Origin: Eledone cirrhosa | Taxonomy: Eukaryota | Length of the DNA stretch: 64,000 nt | Reading direction: 5' to 3' | Assembly: GCA_964016885.1 (NCBI GenBank) | Contig: OZ024757.1 | Location: 23,560,001-23,624,000 of the forward strand | In this document: piece after piece, positions 54,652 to 54,714 of the stretch | How the letters are laid out: each line of letters opens with the position of its first letter | Numbering within the stretch: position 1 is the first letter of the stretch | Program-made: the position numbers and the translations under genes | Notes under the pieces: model-generated | What the model was told of the DNA's origin: nothing | Seen by the model: only the letters and a program-made list of their open reading frames with translations | Databases searched by the model: none

Positions 54652-54714
54652 TATTTTATTATACATATTTCAAAGATACAATGGTGTTTAAGTACGTTTT
54701 CATCAGATAAAGTA
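54652..54714 (-). ncRNA. diverged type-I hammerhead ribozyme motif (HHR3)
   Basis: Reverse complement: UACUUUAU CUGAUGA AAACGUAC-UUAAACACCAUU-GUAUCUUU GAAA UAUGUA UA AUAAAAUA. Confidence 0.7.

Follow-up and report, generated by a model that had tools for sequence, protein, structure and literature searches.

A type I hammerhead motif in a multi-copy, likely Penelope-like repeat fragment beside a foldback of a second hammerhead family

Organization of the locus

The window, that is, the whole stretch of 64,000 nt analysed here, consists of repeat-rich animal DNA, presumably octopod to judge from its SINEs. The hammerhead motif under study (HHR3, minus strand, 54652..54714) lies within element C (54510..54764, minus), a 5'-truncated multi-copy repeat fragment that was delimited by read depth, contig pieces and loose alignment ends and has its 3' end at 54510-54519. 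Loose ends at 54601 and contig pieces mark off an optional tail of about 82-92 nt (54510..54600, minus), at the start of which lie a bulged hairpin and a short conserved stretch (54561..54596, minus). Element C is separated by a (TA)11.5 tract (54486..54508) from piece B (54378..54487, plus), which is made up of a 73-nt foldback and a 35-nt one-sided extension, has no hammerhead and shows much lower depth; it is probably a third short Penelope-type insertion, from a lower-copy family. Beyond a (TA)12.5 tract (54357..54381) follows element A, whose two head-to-head arms (115 nt, 98% complementary) carry one hammerhead each: the tail-less inverted arm (54218..54357, plus), recognized by a descriptor match and the inverted repeat, contains HHR2 (54256-54326, predicted cleavage after 54318), and the tailed arm (53993..54217, minus), which is 5'-truncated at 54217, contains HHR1 (54184-54114, predicted cleavage after 54122). 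The optional tail of family A (53993..54070, minus), about 78 nt long and marked by loose ends at 54071, opens with a hairpin motif (54072-54037), and a (TA)35.5 tract (53913..53983) lies beside the element. On its other side, element C is preceded by a SINE of a separate family (54772..55024, minus), presumably with a tRNA-type head, which ends in a TA remnant. There is a second long SINE copy, 79% alike, at 55699-55936 (plus) without a hammerhead, and a family of far greater depth has 54828-54881 in common with the SINE, with a different end beyond it that is formed by a short palindrome and TA.

Several further features were seen elsewhere in the window. Positions 1-720 hold a tandem array with a period of about 49 nt in which most units contain CTGATGA, with no hammerhead descriptor match. 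The single 5S rRNA-like copy at 10385-10509 (plus) scores 71 bits with several non-standard pairs and is possibly a pseudogene or a SINE head. Next to a very long TA-rich microsatellite, an open frame (38628-39620, minus) with a weak zf-RVT match is probably the 3' end of a LINE. Two other minus-strand frames have no Pfam match; we take that at 13288-13566 to resemble the C-terminus of an RTE-type LINE and that at 32890-33237 to resemble the N-terminus of a mariner transposase.

The HHR3 motif

Read along the minus strand, HHR3 is a minimal type I hammerhead that begins with the 5' arm of stem I (54714-54707) and the core CUGAUGA (54706-54700), followed by a 28-nt stem II region, GAAA (54671-54668), the palindromic stem III sequence UAUGUA, the dinucleotide UA and the 3' arm of stem I (54659-54652); cleavage is predicted from the motif to occur after 54660. 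A type I descriptor run over both strands of the 64 kb gave three matches, with cores at 54176 (HHR1, minus), 54264 (HHR2, plus) and 54706 (HHR3, minus), while 200 dinucleotide shuffles made block by block (500 nt) gave a mean of 0.01 and a maximum of one, three matches being reached in none of the 200. HHR3 is thus a real motif with an intact type I hammerhead core. Rfam reported no hammerhead in the window at its gathering thresholds, nor among the 31 matches up to an E value of 10, and its models evidently do not cover this hammerhead variant.

Stem II consists of the pairs A-U, A-U, A-U, C.C, G.U, U-A, A-U and C-G, with the mismatch at position 4, where HHR1 and HHR2 have C.U. At positions 10.1-11.1 there is an A-U or G.U pair in place of G-C, and no nucleotide is bulged after A9. 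As a homodimer, stem III would form all eight pairs, including tandem U.G/G.U wobbles, at a predicted -2.2 kcal/mol. The spacing between HHR3 and HHR1 is 530 nt from core to core and 538 nt from cleavage site to cleavage site. The preliminary description of this DNA was therefore accurate in its account of the motif: the minus-strand CUGAUGA, GAAA and UA are all present in type I topology, stem II pairs as named with its mismatch at the fourth position, UAUGUA is self-complementary by way of two wobbles, and HHR3 and HHR1, both on the minus strand, lie about 530 nt apart.

Two repeat families in public reads

Four of the 23 listed public runs (X1, X5, X19 and X21) were aligned to 53995-54900 at 80% likeness. 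Run X1, the best-matching run listed, comprises contigs with the same species label and may be the source sample, X21 consists of RAD reads from another sample with that label, and X5 is from another species. From X1, 10,024 contigs were aligned, 8,259 of them less than 99% alike, and from X21, 13,275 RAD reads. Of the 33 joints, 178 variant rows and 688 loose-end rows that these alignments gave, 15, 40 and 24 respectively were listed; the contig alignment skipped (TA)n tracts, and contigs spanning the junctions were not observable.

The summed depth in X1, which is not equivalent to copy number, was 3.3e5-1.3e6 over the tailed arm of element A (53995-54211) and 3.1e4-2.8e5 over element C (54522-54769), and fell to 417-1,684 over piece B; even the lowest bin of element C exceeds piece B at least 18-fold. 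The same dip over piece B was seen in the RAD reads, which may derive from few loci. Family A and family C are 46% identical upstream of the core, 46% from ribozyme to tail and 45% in the distal tail, and the shuffle means for these comparisons are 42%, 49% and 51%, so that outside the ribozyme and one hairpin the two match at chance level only. HHR3 and HHR1/HHR2 are members of two different multi-copy repeat families.

Both families occur in a short and a long form. Family A has loose ends into TA at 54071 in 32 X1 contigs and one X5 contig, while others reach 53995 and beyond, and the HHR2 arm ends at the position corresponding to 54071. For family C, loose ends into TA at 54601 were found in 383 RAD reads, possibly from few loci, and an X1 contig piece (piece 4) starts there; the long form is represented by X1 piece 3, which extends to about 54519. 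In the 5' direction, family A continues past 54217 at other loci in two species (X1 and X5) and family C past about 54763 elsewhere (X1 piece 4), and elements A and C are therefore truncated here. In X19, guessed to be RNA from another organism, 19 contigs were aligned, 17 of them less than 90% alike and mostly over the AT-rich 54595-54681; they were counted as evidence neither way.

State of the HHR3 copy and variation within the families

The window copy of HHR3 differs from its family in two stem positions. Stem I has a C.A mismatch, leaving seven of eight pairs, which is private to this copy at 54712, where the family carries the pairing letter in 25,114 of a depth of 25,169; at 54676 the copy has G.U in stem II where 158,813 of 176,834 would give G-C. 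The HHR3 copy has therefore drifted from its family. Its folding energy is unexceptional against shuffles (z -0.94; 36 of 200 shuffles equally good), and the fold with stems I and II, at +2.7 kcal/mol, is 11.7 kcal/mol less favourable than the minimum-energy fold, since in the latter GAAA and stem III are predicted to pair with AU sequence further downstream. Restoring the two majority letters would still leave a gap of 8.1 kcal/mol, and folding therefore does not demonstrate activity of the family; for HHR2 the corresponding values are -14.1 and -18.4 kcal/mol. The genomic copy of HHR3 is probably decayed and is predicted to be inactive or nearly so.

Compared with HHR1 and HHR2, HHR3 shows two double-sided changes in stem II (positions 6 and 8), and in the stem III dimer a double-sided change from G-C to A-U and a change from C-G to a U.G wobble. 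Among the 40 variant rows listed of 178, ten fall in hammerhead stems, every one of them preserving or re-establishing a pair, and the cores contain none; these ten represent eight distinct positions, two pairs being mirror positions of element A, and since transitions often give wobbles this pairing is supportive and not decisive. The earlier proposal that structure was kept despite sequence change is thus borne out for the parent families by the double-sided changes and the stem variants, in a comparison of two families that is not a covariation statistic, and selection on the ribozyme in the parent families is supported. Separately, a loose end at 54679 (529 RAD reads of X21, agreement 0.56) leads into a CUGACGA core with a different stem II and the same mismatch at position 4, which, as a lead only, may point to another hammerhead family.

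A hairpin shared by the two tails

Both tails open with the same 35-nt motif on the minus strand, at 54071-54037 in family A and at 54595-54561 in family C. Over the whole tails, the match score was reached by 17 of 2,000 shuffles; over the first 40 nt, a window chosen after the match had been seen, it was reached by none of 2,000. The family C motif is predicted to fold into 5 bp, a 2-nt 3' bulge and 5 bp, and the same shape is predicted for family A once its two majority letters are put in, but not for the sequence present in the window. The majority letter at 54043 in X5 and X21 (13% in X1) increases the likeness of the segment behind the hairpin. The folding z-scores, -1.35 and -1.14, are weak. 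Copies of the short form terminate 0-6 nt ahead of the hairpin. Both tails begin with CAG, and a 3' splice site was considered; AT-rich DNA yields such sites easily.

The shared tail hairpin is a new point beyond the first reading. No description of it was listed in the literature searched, and five motifs had no match in the supplement of PMC8557442, in which long runs are shortened.

Origin of element C

We consider it probable, with good confidence, that HHR3 sits in a multi-copy fragment of about 250 bp that is likely the 5'-truncated 3' end (pseudo-LTR and tail) of a TA-targeting Penelope-like retroelement (PLE), likely inserted independently of the HHR1/HHR2 foldback, which belongs to a sister family. 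Families A and C both have (TA)n at the insertion ends, 5' truncation and an optional 3' tail, and family A has in addition a head-to-head inverted copy. As described by Craig et al. (PMC8557442), PLEs are 5'-truncated, may have an adjacent inverted copy and a tail of 30-40 bp on one end, and insert at microsatellites; TA-targeting PLEs are recorded there in Octopus. Penelope expansions in octopuses have been described (PMC13282606; PMC8967140), the main text of PMC13282606 making no mention of ribozymes, and 235 Hammerhead_1 matches were given for the giant squid genome (PMC6962438). Minimal hammerheads with a palindromic helix III occur, mostly singly, in the pseudo-LTRs of PLEs, and where dual they lie on opposite strands about 100-700 bp apart (Cervera and De la Pena, PMC4209133). 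Three points count against this origin: the tails of 78 and about 82-92 nt are twice the length reported for PLEs, the G10.1-C11.1 pair and the bulge of the minimal hammerhead consensus of PLEs are missing, and neither family could be linked to an RT or GIY-YIG ORF in the frames searched.

Under the PLE reading, the GIY-YIG nuclease of an autonomous element would nick (TA)n, and its reverse transcriptase (RT) would begin synthesis on the element RNA at either of two internal sites, a start just 5' of the tail hairpin giving the short form and a start at the tail end the long form. Early stops of the RT would be usual and would leave short fragments of the 3' end, some of them with a second arm in inverted orientation. 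In the Poseidon element of Anolis (PAc), the tail is the segment between two internal RT start sites (Frangieh et al., PMC11167929). The ribozyme of an active parent would cleave only as a homodimer via its palindromic stem III, or with the help of protein, in tandem transcripts. PLE hammerheads cleave as dimers according to Lunse et al. (as reported in PMC6765202), their activity is described as low even as dimers (PMC4209133), and the ribozyme of PAc, which requires protein, can be dispensed with for insertion in vitro (PMC11167929). Element C likely gives rise to no small circular RNA.

Compared with Pfam, none of 150 frames of the window (148 of the 184 non-low-complexity frames of at least 60 aa, plus two added) showed an RT or GIY-YIG domain of a PLE, and a 40-aa frame over and upstream of HHR3 had no match among 1.84 billion proteins. 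Elements A and C are truncated, and an attached ORF therefore need not be present in the window copies.

By analogy with PAc, the hairpin, lying 0-6 nt from the ends of short insertions, may bind or position the RT. It is possible, though less likely than not, that the bulged hairpin (5 bp, a 2-nt bulge, 4-5 bp and a fixed short stretch) common to the two families, whose sequences are otherwise unrelated, is the RNA signal that positions an internal RT start; the lineage would then be one whose tails, at 80-90 nt, are unusually long and whose hammerhead subtype has a C.Y mismatch fixed in stem II. Internal start-site choice by PLEs has been shown for one element only (PMC11167929), and a motif conserved between families would allow a direct mutational test of it. 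The shared hairpin is the part worth following: Penelope-type minimal hammerheads number in the thousands in animal genomes, and as a known kind of element the finding is ordinary.

Alternative explanations

The preliminary description had taken HHR3 and HHR1 as a retrozyme-like pair that would cleave as a dimer and excise an RNA of about 0.54 kb. Such a unit of 538 nt, circularising as in retrozymes, accords with two co-oriented motifs with intact cores at that distance, yet it is very improbable on the evidence. A repeated 538-nt unit would have even depth, and the uneven depth over A, B and C, with piece B so far below element C, therefore speaks against amplification as one unit, as do the chance-level flanks of the two families. 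In a minus-strand transcript of 54730-54060, the antisense of the HHR2 arm is the predicted partner, at P>0.9, of 84 of 85 nucleotides of HHR1, a pairing that at equilibrium would lock HHR1 in a 115-bp duplex (mean pairing probability 0.997), and the modelled stem III between HHR3 and HHR1 contains an A.C mismatch and reaches -0.1 kcal/mol, compared with -10.5 for HHR1 with itself. A retrozyme consists of one unit repeated in tandem (PMC7229834; Li et al., bioRxiv 10.64898/2026.07.22.740005), whereas no long-period tandem repeat was found here and no same-strand joint leads from HHR1 back to HHR3 among the 15 joints listed of 33. The claim of an excised unit is not sustained by these results, and the rival that had been named beforehand, independent insertions into TA-rich DNA, is favoured by the uneven depths and the chance-level flanks. 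Co-oriented hammerheads a few hundred bases apart can, as a caution, be independent insertions into one microsatellite and not a circle-forming unit. A wider version, unlikely but of more weight, derives family C from a PLE as a non-autonomous element, in a broad sense a non-LTR retrozyme, that is tandem elsewhere, with element C as a dispersed, decayed monomer unrelated to HHR1. It would fit the kinship of retrozymes with pseudo-LTRs and their many solo monomers (Li et al., bioRxiv 10.64898/2026.07.22.740005), the PLE-type hammerhead of D. willistoni that is also found in a tandem array (PMC4209133) and the lack of a linked ORF in the frames searched here; its weakness is that copies are 5'-truncated and end in (TA)n at the fixed internal site 54601, and that the 15 joints listed of 33 include no same-strand joint of the 3' end of C to its 5' end.

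A Pol III-transcribed ribozyme SINE like schistosome Sm-alpha, formed by HHR3 together with the upstream SINE, is quite improbable as well. The two share orientation, the summed depth is alike on either side of their junction (2-3e4), and, counted from the SINE start along the minus strand, four consecutive U first occur at 54647, 13 nt beyond the cleavage site, so that SINE-driven Pol III read-through ending there is possible on paper. Against a joint element stand the TA remnant at the junction, the divergence of four long X1 contigs at 54763-54772 with none of the eight X1 pieces listed crossing it, the second long SINE copy, which loses similarity at the junction and has no hammerhead, and a B-box-like stretch that departs from the consensus. 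That HHR3 is a chance motif in AT-rich DNA has a negligible probability: the copy folds no better than shuffles, and a loose pattern matched six metagenome loci, none of them with stem I pairing of the HHR3 type, but three descriptor matches stand against an expected 0.01, the family letters repair the stems, which refutes chance at the level of family pairing, and a second conserved motif follows at a similar distance in both families. Pattern scans gave no match in viral contigs (two patterns) or in prokaryote genomes, and no PLE ORF was evident in the two metagenome loci listed. The metagenome matches at L005 1177-1245 and L001/L004 5001-5067 have CUGANGA and GAAA in other registers, and L005 may be an unrelated minimal hammerhead.

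Comparison with known systems

Metazoan non-LTR retrozymes (PMC7229834; Li et al., bioRxiv) are like the families described here in their type I hammerhead, low GC content, absence of protein and kinship with pseudo-LTRs; they are tandem repeats of one unit of 150-450 bp, typically with canonical hammerheads, whereas the 538 nt between the present ribozymes separate members of two different families and contain unrelated inserts.

The minimal hammerheads of metazoan PLEs (PMC4209133) share with those of the window the type I topology and the CUGANGA/GAAA/UH core, a short stem III with a 4-nt self-complementary loop, a long helix II, and the presence of many sequence families in one genome, mostly found singly or in opposite-strand pairs and without an ORF. 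The nearest rows in that source are the variants of D. willistoni and Aedes aegypti. Its consensus has a bulge after A9 and G10.1-C11.1, neither of which is found here; these consensus traits are not universal, and A10.1-U11.1 also appears in the D. willistoni and shrimp rows, although the columns of the PDF may be off. Particular to the present families are a C.Y mismatch fixed at position 4 of stem II, a stem I that is AU-rich and 8 bp long, and the lack of a linked ORF.

Regarding whole elements, the TA-targeting EN+ PLE clades of PMC8557442 are alike in the (TA)n target, 5' truncation, an inverted adjacent copy, a tail on one end and a hammerhead near the 3' end. Hydra-1_Obim of Octopus bimaculoides, as given there, has a hammerhead of other sequence with a 4-bp stem III, and the families here are therefore not Hydra-1_Obim; assignment to a clade among Neptune, Hydra and Poseidon would need an ORF. 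In PAc (PMC11167929) the ORF has its start within the hammerhead and the stem-loop has an AC-rich loop, whereas the frames that run through the ribozyme here are closed by a stop within some 15 codons or terminate directly behind it, and the hairpin is a different bulged stem; PAc and the present families are alike in the optional tail downstream of the hammerhead, the stem-loop at that tail and AT-rich targets.
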